The notes under the pieces were generated by a model. That model saw only the letters and a list, made by a program, of their open reading frames with translations, did no database searches and was not told the origin of the DNA. Source: an uncultured Thermoleophilia bacterium (GTDB lineage Bacteria; Actinomycetota; Thermoleophilia; UBA2241). Taken from it: a stretch of 64,000 nucleotides of DNA. A program made the position numbers and the translations under genes. This document shows positions 36,366 to 50,273 of this stretch, in pieces (position 1 is the stretch's first letter; the number at the start of each line of letters is the position of its first letter). The stretch covers positions 72 to 64,071 of the forward strand of contig CAVPJG010000008.1 in the NCBI GenBank assembly GCA_963705205.1. The letters run 5' to 3'.

Positions 36366-36488
36366 CGTCCCCCCGCGCCTCGGCCGGTGCTTCGCTCGGC
36401 CGATGCACTGTCGGTGTCCGGATGCCCGCTGTCGCTTGTGTGTCGGCGCACGTCTGGGCCGCCGCGCGTGGAACCTACCTCCCAGGTA

Positions 36489-36505
36489 TTAGCGGACGGT
36501 TAGCG
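36489..36505 (-). promoter_or_regulatory. candidate Pho box upstream of phoU (two units, 11-bp phase)
   Basis: + strand: TTAGCGgacgGTTAGCG. Gene sense: CGCTAACcgtcCGCTAAT. TAGGTT (36477..36472) lies 11 nt downstream as a TANNNT -10 candidate. About 125-140 nt upstream of ATG 36365. Confidence 0.45.
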
Positions 36506-36638
36506 TGGCGTCAAGCGGCGACGAGCCGGGCGCGAAGGAACGATGGGCGCGGCGGCCGGTCGTCGTGCGCCCGCCGGATTCACCGCGATGTCGTGCCCGG
36601 CTCACACCTTCCTAACATGCAGCGGGCAGGCTGTCGCC

Positions 36639-37077
36639 ATGCTCACTCGCGGCATGAAGATCCGGCGTCAACTCCGCAGCGTCCGCGCCTCCGCGCTGTC
36701 GGAGGAGGAGCGCCGGCAGGAGCTTCGCGAGGCCGAGGCGAGAGGCGCGCACGACGAAGGTGATGCGCCAGCCGAGCCTGCAGCGTCCCCCCGCGCCGCG
36801 GGCCAGGACAGCACGCCGAGGCCACCCGAAGCAGGGGCCGAGCGGGCCGGTGTCGACGAAGCCGACTGACGCCGGCCCGCCCGCGGCCACTCCTGCTCTC
36901 CCGGCGCTTACCGTCCGGCTCACCTGCGAGGTCTGCGACGAGGACCTGCTCGTCGCACCACCCCAGACAGCGGTGCGCTACGGAGCCATCGATTGTCCCG
37001 CCTGTGGCACCAGCTACCTCATCCTCTTGGAGCCACGCGGCAGACGGGGCCCGCGGCCGGCCACGAGCGCTGCCTGA
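36639..37077 (+). pseudogene. hypothetical protein with C-terminal Cys4 zinc-ribbon; either frame-shifted near 36850-36870 or two overlapping small ORFs
   Basis: MLTRGMKIRRQLRSVRASALSEEERRQELREAE... ends at TGA 36867-36869. The next frame carries ...LTVRLTCEVCDEDLLVAPPQTAVRYGAIDCPACGTSYLILLEP to TGA 37075-37077. A GTG at about 36849 could start the second part independently. Confidence 0.35.
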
Positions 37078-37127: not shown

Positions 37128-37682
37128 CTACGCCGTCAGTACTCCCTCTGCCCCCGTCCCGAGGCCGGGCGCCACGATCGCCGCGCCGGCCTCCGCGGCC
37201 GGCCAGGCGTGGCCGATCCTGCGGCGGAATACTGTGCCCCGGCCGTCCCCAACGTCGCCATCCCGCCTCGCCGGCCGGCCGCCGATGACAGCGTCGGCCG
37301 GCAGGGGAGTGAAGCCCACGGCGAGGAGGAAGGCGACCGACGGGCCCGACGGCGACGAGACGGAGCGGGCCCAGCCGCGCCCGTGCATGCGGGCGGTCGC
37401 GAAGAAGCGCTCGCAGAGTCGCCGTCCGAAGCCCAGGCGCCGGAACGCCGGATGGACCCCGATCATGTGTACGCAGGCCTCGTCCGGGTGCTCCTGGGAG
37501 AGGAAGCCAAGGAGGAAGCCGACGAGCTCACCGTCGCTCGCCTCGAGCACGAAGCTGGTCGGCGTGAGGTGAGAGAAGAAGACGTGCGGCAGGTAGAGAC
37601 TGGTCGCCGGCCCACCCCACCACTCGTCGATGACCGCGAGCACACGGTCGCAGTCCGACGGGCGCACATGACGCAGTTGCAT
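37128..37682 (-). CDS. GNAT-family acetyltransferase, WWGG-motif type (paralog A)
   Basis: MQLRHVRPSDCDRVLAVIDEWWGGPATSLYLPHVFFSHLTPTSFVLEASDGELVGFLLGFLSQEHPDEACVHMIGVHPAFRRLGFGRRLCERFF. ATG 37682 lies 2 nt after the stop of the upstream YHS gene. Confidence 0.8.
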   Translation of the reverse strand: MQLRHVRPSDCDRVLAVIDEWWGGPATSLYLPHVFFSHLTPTSFVLEASDGELVGFLLGFLSQEHPDEACVHMIGVHPAFRRLGFGRRLCERFFATARMHGRGWARSVSSPSGPSVAFLLAVGFTPLPADAVIGGRPARRDGDVGDGRGTVFRRRIGHAWPAAEAGAAIVAPGLGTGAEGVLTA

Positions 37683-37684
37683 CG

Positions 37685-37891
37685 TCAGGACGCCCTGCGC
37701 GAGGGCCTGGGCTCCGTCCGCTCCAGGTACCAACCGGGACGGATGGAGAAGAGCATGCGGCAGCGCTCCGAACAGAAGAGGTACCGGTCGCCCTGCACCT
37801 CGACGCTCAGCGGCGACTGCTCCTCGGCCAGCTCCCGGCCGCATACCGGGTCGCAGACAAGCCGCCTCGGGGGCTCGCTCATCGACTTCAC
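37685..37891 (-). CDS. YHS-domain (TRASH-type) small metal-binding protein (paralog A)
   Basis: 68 aa: ...RRLVCDPVCGRELAEEQSPLSVEVQGDRYLFCSERCRMLFSIRPGWY. Matches the DPVCG...Y(Y/L)FCS..C...F pattern of the YHS domain. Confidence 0.8.
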   Translation of the reverse strand: MKSMSEPPRRLVCDPVCGRELAEEQSPLSVEVQGDRYLFCSERCRMLFSIRPGWYLERTEPRPSRRAS

Positions 37892-38216
37892 CTCCGTATC
37901 GTGCTCGGCTGATGGGTCGTCGCTCCAGAGCGACTACGTCCGATGCTGGAGCGTCCTTGTTCAGGCGGCGTGAGCTTCACGTCAGCCCATCGCTGAGTGG
38001 CCGCCTCGTGAACGCGCCGGGCCGTGCGCTGCGGTCACGCCGTCGGCCCGAACGGCGAGCGGGTGACGAGGCTTCACACTCCGCAAACAAGGGTCGCGTA
38101 ACCTGCAGCCTTGTCTCCCTCAATGGAGGTGTACATGGGTGCGAATCGGTCGGCGACGCCGAGGCAGACGGTTCGCCCTGGCGTGGTGTTCGGCTCGTCG
38201 GGGTAATGCCAAGCCC

Positions 38217-38903
38217 ATGGAGCATACGATACGGCACACCTTCACCCAGCAGCTCGAGGAGCTAGAGCTGCGCACCTTGGGTGGCTTCGACGACGTGAGT
38301 GAACAGCTCGTGCGCGCCATGGACGCCGTGAGGCGATGCGACGCGTCCCTTGCCGCCCTCGTCGTGACGTCCGACCGACAAATCAACCACCGCTACCTCG
38401 ACATCCACCAGGGGGCCATCACGCTGCTGGCGAGTCAGGCCCCCGTGGCCGGGGACCTTCGCCTGGTCGCCGCCCTGCTCCACATCGTCTGGTGCCTGGA
38501 GCGGATGGGGGACCAGTGCGTGAACGTCGCCAAGCTGGTGCCACTCTCCGGCTACGAGTCGCCGCGTGACGAGGAGATGCTGGCCGCGATACAAGACATG
38601 GGGCGGCTCGTGGGCCTGCAGATCGCCCAGGCGAGGGAGACGTTCGCCTCGCGCGACATCGAGCGCGCCGAGGACCTCGCCCTCCAGGATACCGGGGTCG
38701 ACCGCCTCAACCGCCGGGTCTTCCGGCGCGCGGTCGACATCGGAGACGATGTCGAGCTTCGCGAGTGGGCGATGTTCATGGTGCTCATCGCTCGCGCGCT
38801 CGAGCGCATCGGCGACAACACGGTCGACGTGGCCGAGCAGACCGTGTTCCTCGTCACGGGAGAGCTGCGCGAACTGGTCGATGTCCGGCAGTCCCGCGTC
38901 TAG
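38217..38903 (+). CDS. PhoU-family protein (second, divergent copy)
   Basis: MEHTIRHTFTQQLEELE...; repeats …CLERMGDQCVNVAK… and …ALERIGDNTVDVAEQ…. ATG 38217 inside ORF 38139..38903. 325-bp upstream intergenic region. Confidence 0.8.
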   Translation: MEHTIRHTFTQQLEELELRTLGGFDDVSEQLVRAMDAVRRCDASLAALVVTSDRQINHRYLDIHQGAITLLASQAPVAGDLRLVAALLHIVWCLERMGDQCVNVAKLVPLSGYESPRDEEMLAAIQDMGRLVGLQIAQARETFASRDIERAEDLALQDTGVDRLNRRVFRRAVDIGDDVELREWAMFMVLIARALERIGDNTVDVAEQTVFLVTGELRELVDVRQSRV

Positions 38904-39023
38904 GCAGGGGTCTTCATCGGTCGACATCGTGGCTGGGGTGCTACGCCTGGGACCAGAAGCCGGAGCCGTGCGGACGGCTCCCGGTGTGGTCGTGACCGCC
39001 CCGGACAGGCGAGGGGGCTTGCC

Positions 39024-39992
39024 TCAGCCGAACCGCCCGGTCACGTAGGCCTCGGTGCGGGAGTCGCTCGGGTTGGTGAACACCTTGGGCGTCATGTCGA
39101 ACTCGACGAGGATGCCGATCCGATGGTCCTTCTCGTCCTGCCCTTCTGCCACCGTGAAGAACCCGGTACGGTCGCTGACGCGAGCTGCCTGCTGCATGTT
39201 GTGCGTGACGATGACGATGGTGTACTCGGACACCAGCTCGTCCATGAGCTCTTCGATCCTGAGGGTGGAGACCGGATCCAGCGCGGAGCACGGCTCGTCC
39301 ATGAGGATCACGTCGGGCTCGACCGCGATGCAGCGGGCGATGCACAGGCGCTGCTGCTGGCCGCCGGAGAGCGCCATCGCAGAAGACTTGAGGCTGTTCT
39401 TCACCTCGTCCCAGAGCGCAGCGCGTCGGAGTGACCGCTCCACCAGCTCGTCCAGGTTGCCCTTGAACCCGCCGACGCGTGGACCGAAGGCGATGTTGTC
39501 GTAGATCGACTTGGGGAACGGGTTCGGCTTCTGGAAGACCATGCCGATGCGCCGGCGGACCTCCACCGGCTCGACCTTGGGACCATACAGGTCGAGCCCG
39601 TGGTAGAGGACGCCCCCGTGGACCTTGGCGCCTGGGATCAGATCGTTGGTGCGGTTGAAGCAGCGCAAGACGGTGGTCTTGCCGCATCCCGACGGGCCGA
39701 TGAGCGCCGTGATCTCGTTCTTGCGGATGGACATGTTGACGCCCCGGACGGCGTAGGTGCCGCCGTAGGTCACCGCCAGATCCTTCAGCTCGAAGACGGT
39801 CTCTGCCTTGGATTCGTCCCTGGCCTCGCGACGCCGCTGCCGGGTGATCTCGGCCAGCTTCGCGCTCTCCTGCAGGACGGGGTCTGCGTCGCTCTCGGGG
39901 AGGACCGCGGCCTCAGGAAGCACCCCCGGGGTCAGATCTGGCTCTTCCGTCACGATTGCACCTCTGTTCTCACTCCTGGACGTCTCTTTCAT
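39024..39992 (-). CDS. pstB: phosphate ABC transporter ATP-binding protein
   Basis: [53 protein letters not shown]. The roughly 65-aa N-terminal extension begins with low-GC3 codons, so the true start may be GTG at about 39953. Confidence 0.9.
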
Positions 39993-40029
39993 GTCCGGAG
40001 AGCTTTCACGTCAATCATCCTCACTCCGA

Positions 40030-40944
40030 TCACCATGTCTGCTGGTAGCGGTTGCGGAGCCAGATGGCCACGGCGTTCATCAACAGGGTGATGCACAGGA
40101 GCACGATGATGGCGGCCGCGGCGGCGACGTGGAACTCCACATTGGGCCTTGAGACCCAGTTGAAGATCTGGATGGGGAGCGCGGTGAACGAGCTGTTCAG
40201 CCCCGTCGGGTTGAAGGTGATGAACTGCAGCGCCCCGAGCAGCAGCAGGGGCGCCGCCTCACCGATCGCGCGTGACACGGCGAGGATCGAGCCCGTGGCG
40301 ATGCCCGGGATGGCCGCCGGCAGCACCTGCCTGCTGACCCCCTGCCAGCGCGTCGCGCCGAGCGCCAGCGCGCCGTCCAGGATAGAGCTCGGCACCGCAC
40401 GCAGGGCCTCGCGCGAGGCGATGATGACCACCGGCAGGACCAGGAACGACAGGGTCAGGCCCGCGGTGAGCACGACCGGACCCAGGTTGAAGAAGCCTCG
40501 CGCCAGAAAGGCCAGGCCCAGGATGCCGTACACGATGGACGGCACGGCCGCGAGGTTCTGGATGATGACGTCGATGAACCGGTTGAACCACGCCTCGGTG
40601 TCAGCGAACTGCTCCATGTAGACGGCCGCCCCCACGCCGATGGGGATGGCGACGACGAGCACGATGCCCACCATCCAGAACGTCCCGAAGATCGCCGACT
40701 GGATGCCGGCCTTCTCCGGGAAGCTCGAGGGGAAGTTCGTGATGAGGCTCCAGTTGAGCTTGGGCCAGCCCTCGACGAGGCTCTGCACGATGAGCGCGAC
40801 GAGAACGGCCAGGCCGACCAGCACGCTCCCCGTGACGGCGCCTCGGAACGCCCCGTCCCTGGTGCGGTGCCACCACCCACGCTGGCTGGTCAGCGAGACC
40901 AGCGGGGCCGTGGATGCGTCGTCCTGCGTCGTCAGAGTACTCAA
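40030..40944 (-). CDS. pstA: phosphate ABC transporter permease PstA
   Basis: 304 aa, 6 [12 protein letters not shown] and ALGATRWQ blocks. TTG start overlaps the pstC stop (TTGA). Confidence 0.88.
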
Positions 40945-41891
40945 TCGTAGACCTCGCGGTACTTCCTCACCAGACGGATGCTGATGATGTTCATGATCAG
41001 GGTCATGACGAACAGGCTGATACCGACGGCGAAGATCGTCTTGTAGCCGATGCTGCCGGTCGCCTGGTCACCGAGCCCCGCGGCCCCGATGAAGGCCGTC
41101 ATCGTCTGCATGGCCTCAACAGGGTTGAACGTGAGATTGGGCATGCCGCCGGCGGCGATGAGCACGATCATCGTCTCGCCGACCGCCCGGCTGATGCCGA
41201 GGACGAAGGCGGCGATGATCCCCGAGAGACCCGCCGGCACGACGACGCGTGTGGAGATCTCATACTTCGTGGCGCCGAGGGCGGCCGCGCCCTCGCGAAG
41301 GGATCGCGGCACGGCGTACATGGCGTCCTCGGAGATGGAGGCGACGGTGGGAAGGATCATGATGCCCATCACCAGACCTGCCGAGAGGGCGTTGAACACC
41401 CCCGGCGGGGTCCCGAACAGCCAGTTGTCCCGAAGCAGCGGCGTGATGAACGTCAGGGCGAAGAACCCGTAGACCACGGTGGGAATACCGGCGAGAATCT
41501 CGAGGATGGGCTTGACGAAGCTCCTCGTCCTCCGCGCCGCGTACTCGCTCAGGTAGATCGCCGCCAGGAGGCCGAGCGGCAGGCAGATGAGCGCGGCGAT
41601 GACCGTGACGACGAGGGTGCCCCCGAGAAGCGGCAGGACGCCGAACTTCGAGTTCTTGAAGAGCGGCGCCCATTCCGTCCCCGTGAAGAACTCGACCGGG
41701 CTGACCTGCCCGAAGAACTCGAGGCTCGGGATCAGCAGCGCGAGCACGATACCCAGCGTGAGGACGATCGAGAGCGCCGCACACAGGAACATGCTGCCGA
41801 TGATGATCTTCTCGCGGTAACGGCGGCGGCCCGCCTCCAGGCCCTCGAGGGGACTGGAGGCGGGCTCTACTGTTGGGGCTGCGACCGCCAT
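40941..41891 (-). CDS. pstC: phosphate ABC transporter permease PstC
   Basis: 316 aa, 6 [20 protein letters not shown]-loop region. Confidence 0.88.
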
Positions 41892-41898
41892 CTCTTCC

Positions 41899-42870
41899 TT
41901 ACTGGGCCGCGCCGACGACTCCGTCGAGCACGGACTGAGCGGCCGCGGTCTGCTCAGCGGTGATCGGCACGAACAGGGCCTGCTCGGCGATGCTCTGCGC
42001 GTTGTCCAGATAGAACTGCATGAACGCCGCCATCTCCGGCCGCTGCAGCGCCTCGACCGACGGGTAGATGAAGAGCGGCCTGCTGAGCGGCGTGTACTCG
42101 CCGGACTGCACGGTCTCGAGAGACGGGGTCACGGGGCCGCTGCCGCCGTCGACCGCCACGACCTTCAGCTGGCTGGCGTTCTGCTCGTAGTAGGAGAGGC
42201 CGAAGTAGGCCATGCCGCCCTTGGAGCCGGCCACGCCCTGCACCGCGACGTTGTCGTCCTCGGTGGCCTGGTAGTCGGTCCGGCTGACGCCCTCCTCACC
42301 GTTGATCGCATCGGTGAAGTAGTCGAAGGTGCCGGAGTCCGTACCGGGGCCGAAGAGCTCCAGTGGGACGTCGGGGAAGCTCGGGTCGACCTGGTTCCAG
42401 TTGTTGATCTTGCTGCCGTCGTTCCAGATCATCTTCAGCTGCTCGACCGTGAGGCTGTCAGCCCAGTCGTTCTCGGGGTTGATGACGACCGCGATACCGT
42501 CGTTCGCCACCTGCATCTCGACCCACTCGACTCCGTTGTCGGTGCAGATCTGCTCCTCATCCGACTCGATCTGACGCGAAGCGTCGTTGGCGTCGGTCTC
42601 CCCGGCGCAGAACTTCTCGAACCCGCCGCCCGTGCCGGAGATGCCGACGGTCACACGCACGTCCGGGTTCTCCTCCTGGAAGAACTCCGCCGCGGCCTCG
42701 GTGAGCGGGCCGACCGTACTCGAGCCGTCGATGCGGATGTCGCCCGAGAGGGCTACCGTTCCGGGACTGCTGCTGTCCGAGGTGGACTCCTCGTCGCCCC
42801 CGCAAGCTACGCCGACAAGCGCGATCGCCATCACTGCCGCGACGATCGCAAACCACCGTATGTGCCTCAT
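41899..42870 (-). CDS. pstS: phosphate-binding lipoprotein PstS
   Basis: AGGAGGAA precedes ATG 42870. Lipobox ALVGVAC|[32 protein letters not shown]. Confidence 0.9.
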
Positions 42871-42998
42871 TGTTCCTCCTGTGCCTCTGTGTACTAGCGG
42901 TCCTTGGGTGGTCTCTCGAGACCCGCGCCGAGCGCTGGAACTCAAGTCGCCTCCCAGGCCGTCGCCCCGCAAGGCACGGCCCATACTCCCCAGTTCGT

Positions 42999-43016
42999 GT
43001 TAGCGACTCGTTAGTG
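42999..43016 (-). promoter_or_regulatory. candidate Pho box upstream of pstS (two units, 11-bp phase)
   Basis: + strand: GTTAGCGactcGTTAGTG. Gene sense: CACTAACgagtCGCTAACa. TATGGG (42986..42981) lies 12 nt downstream. About 130-146 nt upstream of ATG 42870. Confidence 0.45.
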
Positions 43017-43112
43017 GACGATGTGGTTGCCGCGAGGCCCAGGAATGCGGACTGCTGGGCCACCTCTGGCAGACCACGACGAGCTGGGTCTTCCGGGGGC
43101 GAGTCTGGACAC

Positions 43113-43919
43113 TCATCGTTCGCGGTTGATGAGGAACACGTCATCGTCGCGTAAGCGCGCCTGAGCCGCCGAGAGCCGTCGGGCCAGGCGTGCTGACCAG
43201 GCGACGGCGGCGGCGACAGCCCCGTTGAATTCGACGTGCCCCTCGCGGTGCACGCTCGTCATCGAAGACAGGCCGGGGAAGCCGGCATTCAGCGAGACGG
43301 CATGGGGAGGCCGTGTGCCACCAGGCCCGGTACTGGACCGAGGACACCTTGGATTCCAAGACGCCAGGACCCGGTCGAGGCCCTCCTGCGAGGATCCTCC
43401 GTGCTCGCTGACGCTGCCGGGCAGGGCCGGCTCGTACTCCGGTGCGATCTGCCGCCTGAAGACCACGCGGTGCCCGCCGGCGCCGGCGTAATCGAACCAC
43501 ACCGGCAAGCCGTCGACGATGACGTCGCCGTGGAGCGGCGCGAAGCCCAGGCTGCGATGGAAGGCGATCGACAGCTGGTTGGACGGCGCCGTGATGCTGC
43601 GCACGCAGCAGCGGCCGTGCATCTGCGCGGCGACGAAGAAGCGTTCGTAGAGCCGCCGCCCCAGGCCGAGCCGCCGGGAGCCGGGGTGGATGCCGATGAA
43701 GTGGACATAGGCTTCCTCGGGATGGGTCTGGGAGAGGAAACCCAGCAGGAAGCCGACGAGCTCGGCGTCGTTCTCGAGCACGAAGCTCGTCGGCGCGAAG
43801 TGCGTGAAGAAGACGTGGGAGAGTCGGGCGCCCATCGGACGGCCGCCCCACCAGGAGTCGATGACGGCGAGCACGGGGTCGTAGTCGGCTGAGTGCACGT
43901 GGCGCAGCCGCATGGTCAC
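43113..43919 (-). CDS. GNAT-family acetyltransferase, WWGG-motif type (paralog B) with about 100-aa C-terminal extension
   Basis: M(T)MRLRHVHSADYDPVLAVIDSWWGGRPMGARLSHVFFTHFAPTSFVLENDAELVGFLLGFLSQTHPEEAYVHFIGIHPGSRRLGLGRRLYERFF. GTG 43919 overlaps the YHS stop (GTGA); ATG 43913 is an alternative. Confidence 0.8.
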   Translation of the reverse strand: MTMRLRHVHSADYDPVLAVIDSWWGGRPMGARLSHVFFTHFAPTSFVLENDAELVGFLLGFLSQTHPEEAYVHFIGIHPGSRRLGLGRRLYERFFVAAQMHGRCCVRSITAPSNQLSIAFHRSLGFAPLHGDVIVDGLPVWFDYAGAGGHRVVFRRQIAPEYEPALPGSVSEHGGSSQEGLDRVLASWNPRCPRSSTGPGGTRPPHAVSLNAGFPGLSSMTSVHREGHVEFNGAVAAAVAWSARLARRLSAAQARLRDDDVFLINRER

Positions 43920-44122
43920 GACGCCTTCCGCCGGGCCGGGTCGTCCGTCGGCTCAACGAACCACGCGGGGCGGATCGAGAACAACCTGCGGCACCGCTCC
44001 GAGCAGAACAGGTAGCTCCGACCCTTGAGCTCGGTGGTCAGCAGAGCCTGACCGGCGGTCAGCTGACGGCCGCACACGGGATCGCGCTGGGGCCGGCAGG
44101 AATGTTCGTTCATGACGCTCAT
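43916..44122 (-). CDS. YHS-domain small metal-binding protein (paralog B)
   Basis: 68 aa: ...RPQRDPVCGRQLTAGQALLTTELKGRSYLFCSERCRRLFSIRPAWF. Confidence 0.8.
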   Translation of the reverse strand: MSVMNEHSCRPQRDPVCGRQLTAGQALLTTELKGRSYLFCSERCRRLFSIRPAWFVEPTDDPARRKAS

Positions 44123-44268
44123 CTCCGCTCCAGTCTCGTAGAACCGACGTCACCGCAGAGGCGACCTCGGTTCAAGATGGCGCAGGCATGTTCAGGGTCG
44201 GTGTGCTCCCGGTCAGCGGACGCTGACCACGACAAGCACCGTCCGCCTTGGCCCAGGAGTCGCGCCGT

Positions 44269-45744: not shown

Positions 45745-45912
45745 TCAGGCAGCCGCCTGTGGCTCGGCTGCATGGTCTGTCACTTCCCGCCGAAGCACCT
45801 CCCTGCCGCCGCAGCGAGGGCACTGCGTCGTCGCGGCGGGATCGTTGTAGCCGTTGTCGCGAAGGGCGAACTCGAAGTCGCACCGCGCGCAGGTGACCAG
45901 CAACCCGCTCAT
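45745..45912 (-). CDS. Cys4 zinc-ribbon micro-protein (55 aa; below the ORF-track size cutoff)
   Basis: GGAG precedes ATG 45912. My translation: MSGLLVTCARCDFEFALRDNGYNDPAATTQCPRCGGREVLRREVTDHAAEPQAAA, stop TGA 45747..45745. GC3-rich. Confidence 0.5.
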   Translation of the reverse strand: MSGLLVTCARCDFEFALRDNGYNDPAATTQCPRCGGREVLRREVTDHAAEPQAAA

Positions 45913-46124
45913 CACTATCTCCTTCCTGCCTGGACATGGGGCGACCGTACCCGGCGTCTCTTTGGAGGCCGTGCGCGCACGATGAGGCGAGCGTTAGCCG
46001 GTACCAAGGACCCCCGGCAAGACGGCCCGGAACGTGGCGGCCGACCCAGTGCATCGTCGGCATCACCGCAGCAGGTTCTCTTTGTTCAGCCCGCTCTCTT
46101 GCCCATCCGCGACTCGGCTGCGGA

Positions 46125-46328
46125 CTAGGCGTGGGGCAGCCCCGCGGCGCGACTCGTCCGGGCGCAGGAGCGCACCGCCGCGAAGTCGACGGCGACCAGG
46201 TCGCTCCCGCAGAACGGGCACGCGACCTCCGGGTCATCCGGCAGCCCGTCGTGCTCAGCGACGTCGAAGTCGTCGCCGCAGTTCCAGCAGATGTAGATCA
46301 CGACTGCTTTGCTTTGCGTCAGGTCCAT
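46125..46328 (-). CDS. Cys4 zinc-ribbon micro-protein (67 aa)
   Basis: GAGGAGG precedes ATG 46328. MDLTQSKAVVIYICWNCGDDFDVAEHDGLPDDPEVACPFCGSDLVAVDF.... Confidence 0.55.
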   Translation of the reverse strand: MDLTQSKAVVIYICWNCGDDFDVAEHDGLPDDPEVACPFCGSDLVAVDFAAVRSCARTSRAAGLPHA

Positions 46329-46506
46329 GGCCCCTCCTCGCGTGCGGTTGCGCACGTTTGTAGCCCCCGATTGTGAGAAGGACGTGATGAGGATGTGAGG
46401 AGTCGTTGGTCCGCCTCGACTCAGGGCGCCGCGGCACCGGGCGCGGACTAGTCTGTCCTATCCCCGAGTAGTACCGACACTCGGAGCTTCCTTGCCTCAG
46501 TGAGAT

Positions 46507-47598: not shown

Positions 47599-49395
47599 TC
47601 AGCCTCGAGGGAGGTGGATGCGGAAGGTGCTGCCGCGTCCGATCAGGCTGTCGACCGAGACGCGGCCGCCGTGGATCTGCGCGACGTGCTTGACGATCGC
47701 GAGACCGAGGCCTGTGCCGCCGAGGTCGCGGCTGCGAGCCTTGTCGACGCGGTAGAAGCGCTCGAACAGCCTCGGCAGGTGCTCGCGCGCGACCCCCTGG
47801 CCCTCGTCGGTGACGCTCACGACAACCTCATCGCCTCTCTCCTCGAGCGTGACGACGACGGTGCTGCCCTCAGCGCTGTACTTCACCGCGTTGTCGATGA
47901 GATTGACCACGGCCTGCTCGAGCAGGGGCGGGCTGACGCGCGCAAAGAGGCGTCCGGGGCAGTCTTCCCGCAGCTCGATGCTCTTTGCCTCCGCCTTTGG
48001 GCCGCAGACCTCGAGCGCCACGGCCACCACATCGCAGAGGTCGGCCTCCTCGAGCTGCAGGAGCGGACTGTCTCCCGACTGCTCCAGCGTCGAGAGCGCC
48101 AGCAGGTCCTCGATGATCGAGTTCAGCCGGTCGGCCTGCCCTGAGATGATGCGCACGAAGCGGTGCGCCGCCTCCGGGTCGTCCAGGGCGCCGTCCTCGA
48201 GGGTCTCAGCGAAGCCCTTGATGGAGGTGACCGGCGTCTTGAGCTCGTGGGACACGTTGGCGACGAAGTCGCGCCGCACCGCCTCGAGCCTCTTGAGGCG
48301 CGTCACATCGTTGAGCACGACGACGGCGCCCACGTCGTCTCCGTCGTCGTCCCCGTGCAGCAAGGTACCGTTGGCCTGGAGGTTGCGCTCCTCTGCACCG
48401 ACGCGTATCACGATGTCGGCCTCCACGGGACGATGACCGTCCAGCGTCTGCGCCACCACGTGCTGGAGGTCCGGGTTGCGGACGACCTCCTGGATGGCCC
48501 TGCCCTCGGCCGACACGGGATCGGTGTCCAGGAGGCGCGCGGCGGCCGCGTTCACGGCGATCACCCGCTCGTCGATGTCCACGGCGAGCACGCCCTCGAC
48601 CATGCTGGCGAGCACCGCCTCGCGCTCGTTGCGCTCGTGGGTGAGCCGGCGCAGCTTGTCGTCCAGCTCCGCGGCCATCTGGTTGATGCTCTCGGCGACC
48701 GACGCGAACTCCTCGACACGCGGCACGATCAGCTTGTGCGTGAAGTCCCCCGCCGCAAGGCGTTCGGCGCCGACCTTGATGGCGCGCATCTGCCCGCTGA
48801 TGCGCCGGGACACGTACAAGCCGATGATCGCGGCGATCACCGCGACCAGGATCGCACTCACGGCGATGCTCCCGTAGAGGGAGGCGAGCGCGTTGTTCAC
48901 ACGCGTGAGCGGGACGGCCGTACGCACGACGGTCGTGAGACGGTCGTCCTCGGTGACGGGCACGGCGACGTACATCATCTCCTGCGACAGCGTCCTGCTG
49001 TATCGGATAGCGCGGCCCGGCCGTCCCTCGAGGGCCGCACGGACCTCGGGACGGGTGGCATGGCTCTCCATCTCCAGGGGATCGGTGTCCGAGTCGGCCA
49101 GGACTTGGCCTCTGCCGGATCCCGGACGGTCCACGGCGATGAGCGTGATGCGCGTTCCCGACGACTCGCCCAGTCGCTGCACGAGCGCCTCGAGCTCCTC
49201 GGGCGTGTCGGCCTCAATGGCGGGGAGGATCTGCTCGCGCACGAGCGCCGCCCGCGCCTGCAGCTCCCGCTCGGTGTGGTCCACGTAGAAGTCGCGCACC
49301 GAGCGCACCGCGTAGAAGCCGACCGCGGCGGTGCACAGCACGACGATGACGAGGTAGGTGGCGTAGATACGCCAGAAGAGCCGCGGCCTACCCAC
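47599..49395 (-). CDS. phoR: PhoR-type sensor histidine kinase (2 TM, HAMP, PAS, HisKA, HATPase)
   Basis: 598 aa: SHELKTPVTSIKGFAETL, LIDNAVKYS, DEGQGV, GGTGLGLAIVKH. The PAS segment precedes the H-box. Sits downstream of the PhoB/PhoP-like RR. Confidence 0.8.
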   Translation of the reverse strand: MGRPRLFWRIYATYLVIVVLCTAAVGFYAVRSVRDFYVDHTERELQARAALVREQILPAIEADTPEELEALVQRLGESSGTRITLIAVDRPGSGRGQVLADSDTDPLEMESHATRPEVRAALEGRPGRAIRYSRTLSQEMMYVAVPVTEDDRLTTVVRTAVPLTRVNNALASLYGSIAVSAILVAVIAAIIGLYVSRRISGQMRAIKVGAERLAAGDFTHKLIVPRVEEFASVAESINQMAAELDDKLRRLTHERNEREAVLASMVEGVLAVDIDERVIAVNAAAARLLDTDPVSAEGRAIQEVVRNPDLQHVVAQTLDGHRPVEADIVIRVGAEERNLQANGTLLHGDDDGDDVGAVVVLNDVTRLKRLEAVRRDFVANVSHELKTPVTSIKGFAETLEDGALDDPEAAHRFVRIISGQADRLNSIIEDLLALSTLEQSGDSPLLQLEEADLCDVVAVALEVCGPKAEAKSIELREDCPGRLFARVSPPLLEQAVVNLIDNAVKYSAEGSTVVVTLEERGDEVVVSVTDEGQGVAREHLPRLFERFYRVDKARSRDLGGTGLGLAIVKHVAQIHGGRVSVDSLIGRGSTFRIHLPRG

Positions 49396-49449: not shown

Positions 49450-50151
49450 TCACTGGTCCTGCAGGCGATACCCCACGCCGCGGACGGTCTCGATGTACGC
49501 GCCGCAGCTGCCGAGCTTGCGGCGCAGCGAGACGATGTGGACGTCGACCGAGCGGTCGGTCACGAAGCGGTCGTTGACGAATGAGTCGTCCCCTTGGGCG
49601 GCATCGACGATCTGCTGCCTAGTGAACACCCAGCCGGGACGCTTTGCCAGATACAGGAGGATACGGAACTCCGTGGCGGTGAGCTCTACCGGCTTTCCGC
49701 CGACCAGGACCTGATGCCTGCCGGGGTGGATGGTGAGCTCCTTGATGTGGACGGTCGCCTCGTCGTCCGCGGTCTCGTCGCCGCGGCGTAGCACGGCCCG
49801 GATACGGGCCGTGAGCACCCGCGGGCTGAACGGCTTGGTGACGTAGTCGGACGCCCCGAGTTCGAGGCCGGCTACGACGTCTGCCTCGCTGCCCTTGGCC
49901 GTGAGCATCACGATAGGGATGGCGCGGGTCTTCGCGTCCGACTTGAGACGACGGCAGACCTCGAGCCCGTCGACCCCCGGCAGCATGAGGTCGAGCACGA
50001 TGAGGTCCGGCGTCTTGGCACGCGTTGCCGCCAAGGCGTCCTCGCCGCTGGCCACCACCGTCACGCGGTAGCCTTCCTTGTCCAGGTTGTACTTGACGAG
50101 CTCGAGGATGTCCCGCTCGTCGTCGACGACGAGCACGTTCTCTCTGGCCAT
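49450..50151 (-). CDS. phoP: PhoB/PhoP-type OmpR-family response regulator
   Basis: MARENVLVVDDE...LIVLDLMLPGVDG...KPF...LTATEFRILLYLA...VRGVGYRL. ATG 50151 preferred over TTG 50184. Confidence 0.8.
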   Translation of the reverse strand: MARENVLVVDDERDILELVKYNLDKEGYRVTVVASGEDALAATRAKTPDLIVLDLMLPGVDGLEVCRRLKSDAKTRAIPIVMLTAKGSEADVVAGLELGASDYVTKPFSPRVLTARIRAVLRRGDETADDEATVHIKELTIHPGRHQVLVGGKPVELTATEFRILLYLAKRPGWVFTRQQIVDAAQGDDSFVNDRFVTDRSVDVHIVSLRRKLGSCGAYIETVRGVGYRLQDQ

Positions 50152-50201
50152 CGTCACATCCGTGTCGTGGGTGAGGTCGGGCAAGAGACTATCCGCCCGC
50201 T

Positions 50202-50219
50202 GTTAGGTCTCCGTTAGCA
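50202..50219 (-). promoter_or_regulatory. candidate Pho box upstream of the phoP-phoR operon (two units, 11-bp phase)
   Basis: + strand: GTTAGGTctccGTTAGCA. Gene sense: TGCTAACggagACCTAACa. TAGTCT (50191..50186) lies 10 nt downstream as a -10 candidate. 50-70 nt upstream of ATG 50151. Confidence 0.45.
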
Positions 50220-50273
50220 TACAGGCCGGTGGCCGGGCTTCCTGTCGTCGCCCGGCGAAAGGAGATCGCGCAC

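Follow-up and report, generated by a model that had tools for sequence, protein, structure and literature searches.

A 64,000-nucleotide stretch of contig CAVPJG010000008.1 from an uncultured Thermoleophilia bacterium, called the window below, carries two copies of a gene cassette in which a small YHS-domain protein (YHS microprotein) is encoded directly upstream of a GNAT-type acetyltransferase. Pair A consists of YHS_A (37685..37891) and GNAT_A (37128..37682, 184 aa), and pair B of YHS_B (43916..44122, 68 aa) and GNAT_B, whose open reading frame (ORF), called mechanically, covers 43113..43919; the two pairs bracket the pstS-pstC-pstA-pstB operon (39024..42870, minus strand, assigned from ORFs and Pfam matches). 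An earlier note, made from the letters of this DNA, had listed the same four ORFs, and all of them were found where it placed them, in the same gene order and all on the minus strand. The parts of the cassette are known, and the combination, its proposed coupling and its promoter are new. In the literature searched, no paper joining YHS with an acetyltransferase was found, in line with the earlier note, which knew of no described YHS-GNAT system; the cassette is an undescribed unit.

Both microproteins pass the gathering cut-off of the Pfam family YHS (PF04945; 37.4 bits for YHS_A and 35.6 bits for YHS_B, cut-off 30.3), as had been proposed for them, and a protein identical to YHS_B is encoded on an independent metagenome contig (L141; homologous loci are designated by L and a number). 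In a 23-sequence alignment, C17, C40 and C44 never vary and at least 90% of the sequences have D14, and the canonical CGM of the family reads CGR in the window-type proteins. The same four positions, one Asp and three Cys, are proposed as copper ligands in the YHS domain of the class IIIc adenylyl cyclase of Mycobacterium phlei (PMC4626032). Judged from the residues kept, the Asp and the three Cys of the window-type proteins constitute a probable metal site. An AlphaFold2 model of YHS_B (pLDDT 76) consists of a beta-hairpin (strands 28-32 and 35-39) followed by a helix (42-50), and its best Foldseek matches, toluene/methane monooxygenase hydroxylase alpha chains and the ribosomal protein eL24, are weak (all E >= 0.17).

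Both acetyltransferases match Pfam Acetyltransf_1 (PF00583; 39.9 bits for GNAT_A and 48.6 bits for GNAT_B, cut-off 20.7) and are members of the widespread, uncharacterised family of Bacillus subtilis YqjY. Indeed, a profile of the GNAT family matches the YqjY structure (PDB 1MK4) at E 9.2e-61, with positions 1-156 aligned to residues 2-157, that is, over the full length and including the N-terminal EWWGG segment common to both; 1MK4 also ranks first in a Foldseek search with the AlphaFold2 model of GNAT_A (E 4.5e-14, TMt 0.85), in which residues 164-184 are of low confidence. The "WWGG-type" GNAT of the earlier note is therefore not a new type, WWGG being a signature of this family. The acetyl-CoA motif A (R/Q-x-x-G-x-G/A) is conserved family-wide and is intact in the window as RRLGFGRRL in GNAT_A and RRLGLGRRL in GNAT_B. 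Unlike YqjY, the window-type GNATs carry a C-terminal extension of about 25 aa ending in ..L(T/A)(A/S). YqjY itself is recorded as a structural-genomics "probable acetyltransferase", and no study of it was found in the literature search; with no function known for YqjY, there is no mechanism for the window proteins to inherit from it. After 1MK4, the nearest structural neighbours are EctA and N-terminal acetyltransferases (Naa10, Naa20, Ard1 and RimI by Foldseek).

Two other identities were considered for the GNATs. Mycothiol synthase MshD is built of two tandem GNAT domains in about 300 aa. The window proteins have a single GNAT domain and score 18.8 and 15.8 bits with TIGR03448, for which the cut-off is 163 bits, and the identity was rejected; a literature search for mshD together with pstSCAB returned no paper. 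In Mycobacterium and Corynebacterium, mshD may be a neighbour of pst/phoU genes, and no weight is placed on this here. Arsinothricin and phosphinothricin N-acetyltransferases (ArsN1/PAT) were likewise rejected, the best score being 24.1 bits (ArsN1b with GNAT_B) against NCBIfam cut-offs of 170-300 bits.

Within each pair, the acetyltransferase gene starts almost at the stop codon of the YHS gene. Junction A (37680..37687, minus) reads TGA-cg-ATG directly in the sequence, just as the earlier note gave it, with two nucleotides between stop and start (stop-NN-start). For junction B, that note had described a GTGA overlap, in which a GTG start of the mechanical ORF overlaps the YHS_B stop codon. 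A likelier start is the ATG at 43913, two bases past the YHS_B stop (TGAccATG), which aligns with the GNAT_A start (MRLRHV vs MQLRHV) and at whose position the GNAT_B start is called on the independent contig L141; therefore, both pairs share a stop-NN-ATG geometry. From this ATG, the GNAT_B core of 185 aa extends to a canonical ...VLAS end (43359..43913, minus), as placed by the PF00583 match and the ends of B-type orthologues. As for YHS_A, 68 aa are encoded from the GTG at 37891, and the ATG at 37882, giving 65 aa, is more likely to be the start: GGAGG is found 8 nt upstream of it, the Met is kept among A-type homologues, and the homologue in L142 is called at 65 aa.

Conservation and descent of the pairs

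The pairing is conserved within one lineage. In species-representative genomes, 334 loci of the family were found, spanning Bacillales, Chloroflexota, Cyanobacteria, Desulfobacterota and Actinomycetota. Among the best 80 of these, whose neighbourhoods were compared, only eight (L001-L008) have a YHS ORF as the immediate upstream neighbour of the GNAT gene, all of them from metagenome-assembled genomes (MAGs) of Thermoleophilia, one species each, and the other 72 are without a YHS partner; thus YqjY and most members of the family are encoded by stand-alone genes, unlike the window GNATs. In the reverse direction, metagenomes were searched from the YHS alignment, and over 22 contigs had a GNAT as the next gene downstream. 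Of 31 pairs, 27 are joined by the stop-NN-start junction, both window pairs among them, most commonly as TGACGATG or TGACCATG. Since the same pair with the same junction is found in about 30 other loci, the arrangement is not due to chance and represents a real unit, and the adjacency first noticed in this DNA holds well beyond the source genome.

In a neighbour-joining tree of the GNATs, the YHS-linked proteins group in a single clade that divides into an A and a B subclade, both represented by orthologues in other genomes. Its sister clade is made up of YHS-less GNATs of Thermoleophilia and Actinomycetota. The sole apparent exception, L026, is an N-terminally truncated fragment; it lies at L026:1350-1856 beside a tRNA-like sequence and pyk. 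The A or B type of the YHS protein agrees with that of the GNAT in 22 of 23 pairs, and the distance matrices of the two proteins are correlated (r = 0.46, Mantel p <= 0.0005). Purifying selection acts on both genes (dN/dS 0.12-0.5). From the single YHS-linked clade and its two subclades it follows that YHS joined the GNAT once, that the pair was then duplicated as a unit and that both copies were kept. The earlier view of an old and retained duplication thus stands, while the identity of 60-65% estimated by hand for both proteins was too high: BLASTP gives 53% for YHS_A and YHS_B (36/68) and also 53% for GNAT_A and GNAT_B (97/182). Across loci, the mean identity between A and B types is 57% for YHS and 63% over the first 160 residues of GNAT.

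A separate case is L089, which has an A-like YHS and a B-like GNAT and is possibly a recombinant.

The orthologues of GNAT_B (L081-L088) stop at about 180-186 aa after ..LAS, ..LTT, ..LAF or ..LAG, and the two closest ones, L081 and L082, stop after VLAS. Nucleotide identity between L081, the closest of all, and the window is 94.6%, and the homology ends exactly at the L081 stop codon (window 43357), where the window has TCT TGG instead of TCC TGA. Window 42851-43180 is the conserved pstS upstream region, which is also present in six other loci. The loss of the stop codon, the break in homology and the nearby pstS upstream DNA together mean that the tail of GNAT_B (81 aa, 43116-43358; with its stop codon 43113..43358, minus) is a read-through across a rearrangement junction into pstS upstream DNA. 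The tail is not an assembly error, because a second metagenome contig, L141, which is 98.8% identical, encodes the same 266-aa product. Two differences exist between L141 and the window within the tail, and both are non-synonymous. An extra domain, for which no Pfam match was found in the tail, is ruled out by this negative result together with the stop loss, the read-through into pstS upstream DNA and the non-synonymous differences. The extra tail of roughly 100 aa ascribed to paralog B in the earlier note is therefore shorter than supposed and constitutes no domain.

Besides the tail, codon 79 of GNAT_B (window 43678) encodes Ser right before the RRLG motif, at a position that is Tyr in L141 and aromatic in nearly all members of the family. 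Ser79 and the read-through tail, taken together, may reflect relaxed constraint on the window copy.

Upstream element and phosphate genes

Upstream of the YHS genes, alignments revealed a conserved block, GCTGAC-N5-GC(T/A)CAC-N5-CTGAAC-N10-CA(G/T)C(A/T)T, which keeps a fixed distance of 93-97 nt to the start codon in loci of both types, regardless of which gene adjoins. In the window, the block appears as element A (GCTGAC-N5-GCTCAC-N5-CTGAAC-N10-CAGCAT, 37943..37986, minus; nhmmer E 1.7e-12) and element B (GCTGAC-N5-GCACAC-N5-CTGAAC-N10-CATCTT, 44174..44217, minus; E 1.9e-12), and a hidden Markov model (HMM) of the block has no other match there. Over about 1.9 Mb of loci, the same model gave 30 matches, one per locus and always before a YHS gene. 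The block is followed by a hairpin (GTCGCC-loop-GGCGAC) and then by GGAG. Leader hairpin A, GTCGCT-CTGG-AGCGAC (37919..37934, minus), lies between the putative -10 and the Shine-Dalgarno sequence and has an equivalent in most loci; leader hairpin B, GAACCGAGGTCGCC-TCTGC-GGTGACGTCGGTTC (44141..44173, minus), has a predicted folding energy of -23.7 kcal/mol (RNAfold, z = -5.3 against shuffled sequences).

A riboswitch or other structured leader upstream of YHS was also considered. An Rfam search of 36.5-46.5 kb gave no structured leader or riboswitch, its only match being one to htlv_FSE attributed to chance, and RNAalifold on the leaders gave no structure or weak consensus only, the simple hairpin being the only recurrent one; the candidate was ruled out on these results. 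Since no larger RNA structure was found, the upstream block is read as a DNA promoter or operator. Scans for a sigma-70 consensus and for intrinsic terminators yielded nothing useful. The htlv_FSE match is below threshold (E 0.009), falls on both strands at 41833-41861, close to the pstS/pstC junction, where the 5′ end of pstC (40941-41891) is rich in GC, and is almost certainly due to chance. Direct repeats of the form GCTCA(C/T)-N5-CTCAC are found 75-95 nt before the GNAT start in L011, L014, L015 and L017, in which the GNATs belong to the YHS-less sister clade, a hint that the direct-repeat promoter may predate the YHS insertion.

The architecture of the block resembles that of the promoters of neighbouring phosphate genes. 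A putative Pho box, made up of GCTAAC-N5-GCTAAC and, 10 nt further on, a -10-like nAnnnT, is located upstream of pstS, phoU1 and the phoBR operon, and such boxes are kept at the same genes in L001, L002, L094, L106, L115, L117, L141 and L142. Conservation of a direct repeat at the same Pho genes of homologous loci is how Pho boxes are usually recognized by comparison. Before pstS, whose start at 42870 (MRHIRWF) is placed tentatively from upstream conservation, the putative box reads ACTAAC-N5-GCTAAC, 10 nt, GAGTAT (42983..43026, minus; kept in L001, L002, L094, L106, L115, L117 and L141). Before phoU1 it has three units, 10 nt and TAGGTT (36472..36515, minus), and its first unit is GCTGAC in L001, L094 and L117 and CTTGAC in the window, so its geometry is exactly that of the YHS element. 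A third putative box, also a direct repeat (50186..50229, minus), precedes an operon of a PhoB-like response regulator (49450-50184, minus, 244 aa) and a PhoR-like histidine kinase (47599-49395, minus, 598 aa); the best NCBIfam match of the regulator is PhoB TIGR02154 at 251.9 bits, which is below the cut-off of 296. With this regulator-kinase pair, pstSCAB and two phoU genes, phoU2 being divergent from YHS_A (38217..38903, plus; Pfam PhoU, TIGR02135 137.7 bits), the region of 35.6-50.2 kb represents a phosphate-control island.

The likeness was quantified with a position weight matrix (PWM) trained on the pstS, phoU1 and phoBR promoters only, with the YHS elements left out. For 21 of 27 loci, the best match of this PWM in the region before the YHS gene keeps to one and the same register. 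Among about 128,000 positions of the window, element A ranks fifth and element B eighteenth; element A is outranked only by the three training sites and by one site before the ORF that precedes a small zinc-ribbon gene (ZnR3, see below). In Pho-box promoters, which are recognized by PhoB/OmpR-family regulators, direct repeats of 11-bp period stand in for the -35 and lie 10 nt before the -10, and the YHS element has the same geometry. On account of this shared geometry (three units, 11-bp period, 10 nt and -10), the cassette is probably switched by a PhoB/OmpR-family regulator. Furthermore, at least 11 loci have an A-type pair next to pst and in divergent orientation to phoU2.

Possible roles of the YHS protein

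Of the explanations considered, the one preferred here, although it is held tentatively, is that each pair is a self-contained, lineage-specific two-protein unit in which a YqjY-type acetyltransferase has the YHS protein as its metal-binding partner and which is probably controlled by a regulator of the PhoB/OmpR type. The order of such a cassette would be a direct-repeat promoter, a leader containing a hairpin, the YHS gene (65-68 aa), the stop-NN-start junction and the gene for an acetyl-CoA-dependent N-acetyltransferase of the YqjY family. With this junction, translation of the GNAT would hinge on ribosomes completing the YHS gene, and the two proteins would be made together and in a fixed ratio. 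The YHS protein would then act as a dedicated partner encoded in trans, serving as a subunit for metal-dependent regulation or for targeting, and the cassette would plausibly be switched by phosphate limitation. Of all this, the domain identities, the adjacency with its junction, the joint duplication of the two genes, the cis-element and the purifying selection are shown, and translational coupling, complex formation, metal binding and Pho control are inferred. Free-standing YHS/TRASH proteins and the YqjY branch of GNATs are both common and functionally blank, and the YHS-GNAT cassette offers a concrete and testable pairing of the two.

A precedent for a YHS module serving an enzyme is the M. 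phlei adenylyl cyclase, in which Cu2+ sensing by the module is proposed to switch the cyclase on (PMC4626032). In that protein, an 8-residue linker joins the YHS domain in cis to the cyclase, whereas in the window it is a separate microprotein encoded upstream of the GNAT. A narrower version of the two-protein unit would make the YHS protein a trans-acting metal or metalloid sensor subunit that switches the YqjY-type GNAT on or off, in a cassette induced by the phosphate-starvation regulator, and it is doubtful. The "metal-gated acetyltransferase" of the earlier note is the same idea, and it is supported in part, namely by the ligand set of one Asp and three Cys proposed for the M. phlei domain (PMC4626032), which appears invariant or nearly so in the alignment. 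If the sensor version were true, a new two-subunit, metal-gated acetyltransferase would link phosphate limitation, metal status and acetylation, and a first functional handle on the YqjY family and on free-standing YHS proteins would be gained.

Several observations speak against the two-protein unit or weaken its phosphate side. The YqjY family works without a YHS partner in hundreds of species, and the GNAT residues specific to the YHS-linked clade, sought as a possible interface, are few, about 10 scattered positions. YHS-GNAT fusions were found neither among 154 GNAT homologues (no PF04945 annotation) nor among 21 YHS homologues, all of 86 aa or less, and the top 150 of 7,126 YHS-profile hits include no match to the GNAT HMM. 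In L093, L095 and L099, an A-type YHS gene is followed by a small zinc-ribbon ORF in place of the GNAT, and therefore the YHS protein is not strictly GNAT-dependent. Because all loci are from one narrow lineage, their conserved synteny is of limited weight. As to phosphate, the YHS elements score 8.8 and -3.3 bits with the Pho PWM, compared with 31-37 bits for the reference sites; their units, GCTGAC, GC(T/A)CAC and CTGAAC, consistently have G or C at position 4, where the lineage's Pho consensus GCTAAC has A. In addition, B-type pairs are mostly not near pst and stand beside pyk or small zinc-ribbon genes. The link to phosphate inferred in the earlier note is thus supported in part, by the position of A-type pairs and by the Pho-box-like geometry, and is weakened by the degenerate units and by the usual location of B-type pairs away from pst. 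To judge from these scores, the YHS element may be bound weakly by the PhoB-like regulator or may serve a paralogous regulator of the OmpR family. If the Pho link is true, the phosphate-starvation response of this little-studied class of actinobacteria would gain an acetyltransferase module, and the Pho box of the lineage would be defined as GCTAAC-N5-GCTAAC.

Some of these observations would be expected if the two genes were merely co-transcribed, with the YHS protein a stand-alone metal chaperone or buffer and the GNAT an enzyme acetylating an unrelated small amine, the two proteins never touching each other. Such a chaperone or buffer role is ascribed to TRASH/YHS proteins encoded beside metal ATPases. 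These metallochaperone-type proteins belong to the same Pfam family, as do the YHS N-termini found on copper P-type ATPases, and both share its small Cys-based metal-binding module. Distant YHS relatives precede genes unrelated to the GNAT, encoding a DUF347 membrane protein or a DedA/VTT protein, or are themselves the N-termini of P-type ATPases (L136, L138 and L139). Co-transcription is likewise favoured by the normally stand-alone state of the YqjY family, by the lack of fusions among the homologues screened, and by the presence of EctA, a small-molecule enzyme, among the nearest characterised structural neighbours of the GNAT. It is nevertheless rather unlikely: the stop-NN-start junction is kept in 27 of the 31 pairs despite divergence to 53% identity, and the pair has been duplicated and inherited as a unit, promoter included. 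Moreover, no metal transporter, MerR/CsoR-type regulator or other metal gene was found beside the pairs, which distinguishes the cassette, together with its CGR for CGM, from the metallochaperone-type systems. Should the two proteins be independent after all, the finding would shrink to a conserved operon of two uncharacterised genes.

A different kind of contact is also conceivable, in which the YHS protein is a substrate, carrier or targeting adaptor of the GNAT, for example a zinc-ribbon docking the enzyme onto RNA, the ribosome or another protein. The presence of eL24 among the nearest folds of the YHS model would suit such a role, as would that of Naa10, Naa20, Ard1 and RimI, N-terminal acetyltransferases that require auxiliary subunits, among the structural neighbours of the GNAT. 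Consistent with it as well are the recurrence of small zinc-ribbon ORFs around the cassette and the conserved C-terminus ..R(R/K)AS of the YHS proteins, whose Ser codon varies synonymously. The fold matches of the YHS model are, however, as weak as noted above, no lysine is conserved across the YHS alignment, and nothing specific for ribosome binding was found, which makes this explanation improbable.

Finally, a module resembling type II toxin-antitoxin systems of the GNAT/RHH type (TacAT, AtaRT and KacAT), with the GNAT as toxin like TacT, AtaT and KacT and the YHS protein as an antitoxin and autoregulator binding the cassette operator, is very improbable even though gene order and sizes are alike (a small gene directly before that of a GNAT of about 180 aa), the cassette alone has a conserved cis-element in the manner of their module-specific upstream element, two paralogous copies exist in one genome and a truncated GNAT remnant lies beside a tRNA-like sequence in L026, for the partner has another fold, being a YHS domain without a match to RHH/DUF1778 antitoxins, the GNAT is of another family, TacT, AtaT and KacT chains being absent from its 35 PDB profile hits (E <= 1e-3) and from the 50 best Foldseek matches, its family is mostly stand-alone, in hundreds of species, and hence not inherently toxic, the cassette is syntenic and vertically inherited at a conserved chromosomal position beside core genes, and no PADLOC match to a toxin-antitoxin or defence system was obtained.

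Small zinc-ribbon genes and other features

Small zinc-ribbon ORFs accompany the cassette in several places. ZnR3 (36851..37077, plus, start codon uncertain) is convergent with GNAT_A and was recognized by its homologues in A-type loci, where they are likewise convergent downstream of the GNAT, and more distant relatives occupy this position in some B-type loci. A 76-aa gene is called at the ZnR3 position in L142, and relatives of ZnR3 directly follow YHS where the GNAT is missing, for example in L099. In the window, the plus strand at 36654-37077 contains two overlapping conserved frames, first a charged ORF, MKIRRQLRS..EERRQELREAEAR (about 36654-36869), and then ZnR3 with its CxxC...CxxC pattern (about 36851-37077), which are either two genes or one gene with a frameshift; a Pho-like box is located upstream of them at 36589-36632.

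Other families of small zinc-ribbon ORFs, with weak matches to Pfam Zn_ribbon_8, are found around the cassette at 45745-45915 and 46125-46355 (minus) and in L001, L004, L082, L085, L094 and L117.

The sequence upstream of pstS is strongly conserved over about 310 nt (42871-43180, minus) across six other loci. This is far beyond what a promoter needs, and a long structured or regulated leader is therefore possible.

Many of the small zinc-ribbon ORFs have ..AAA as their last residues; the YHS proteins finish with ..R(R/K)AS and the GNATs with ..L(T/A)(A/S). These C-termini may be degradation-tag-like tails.

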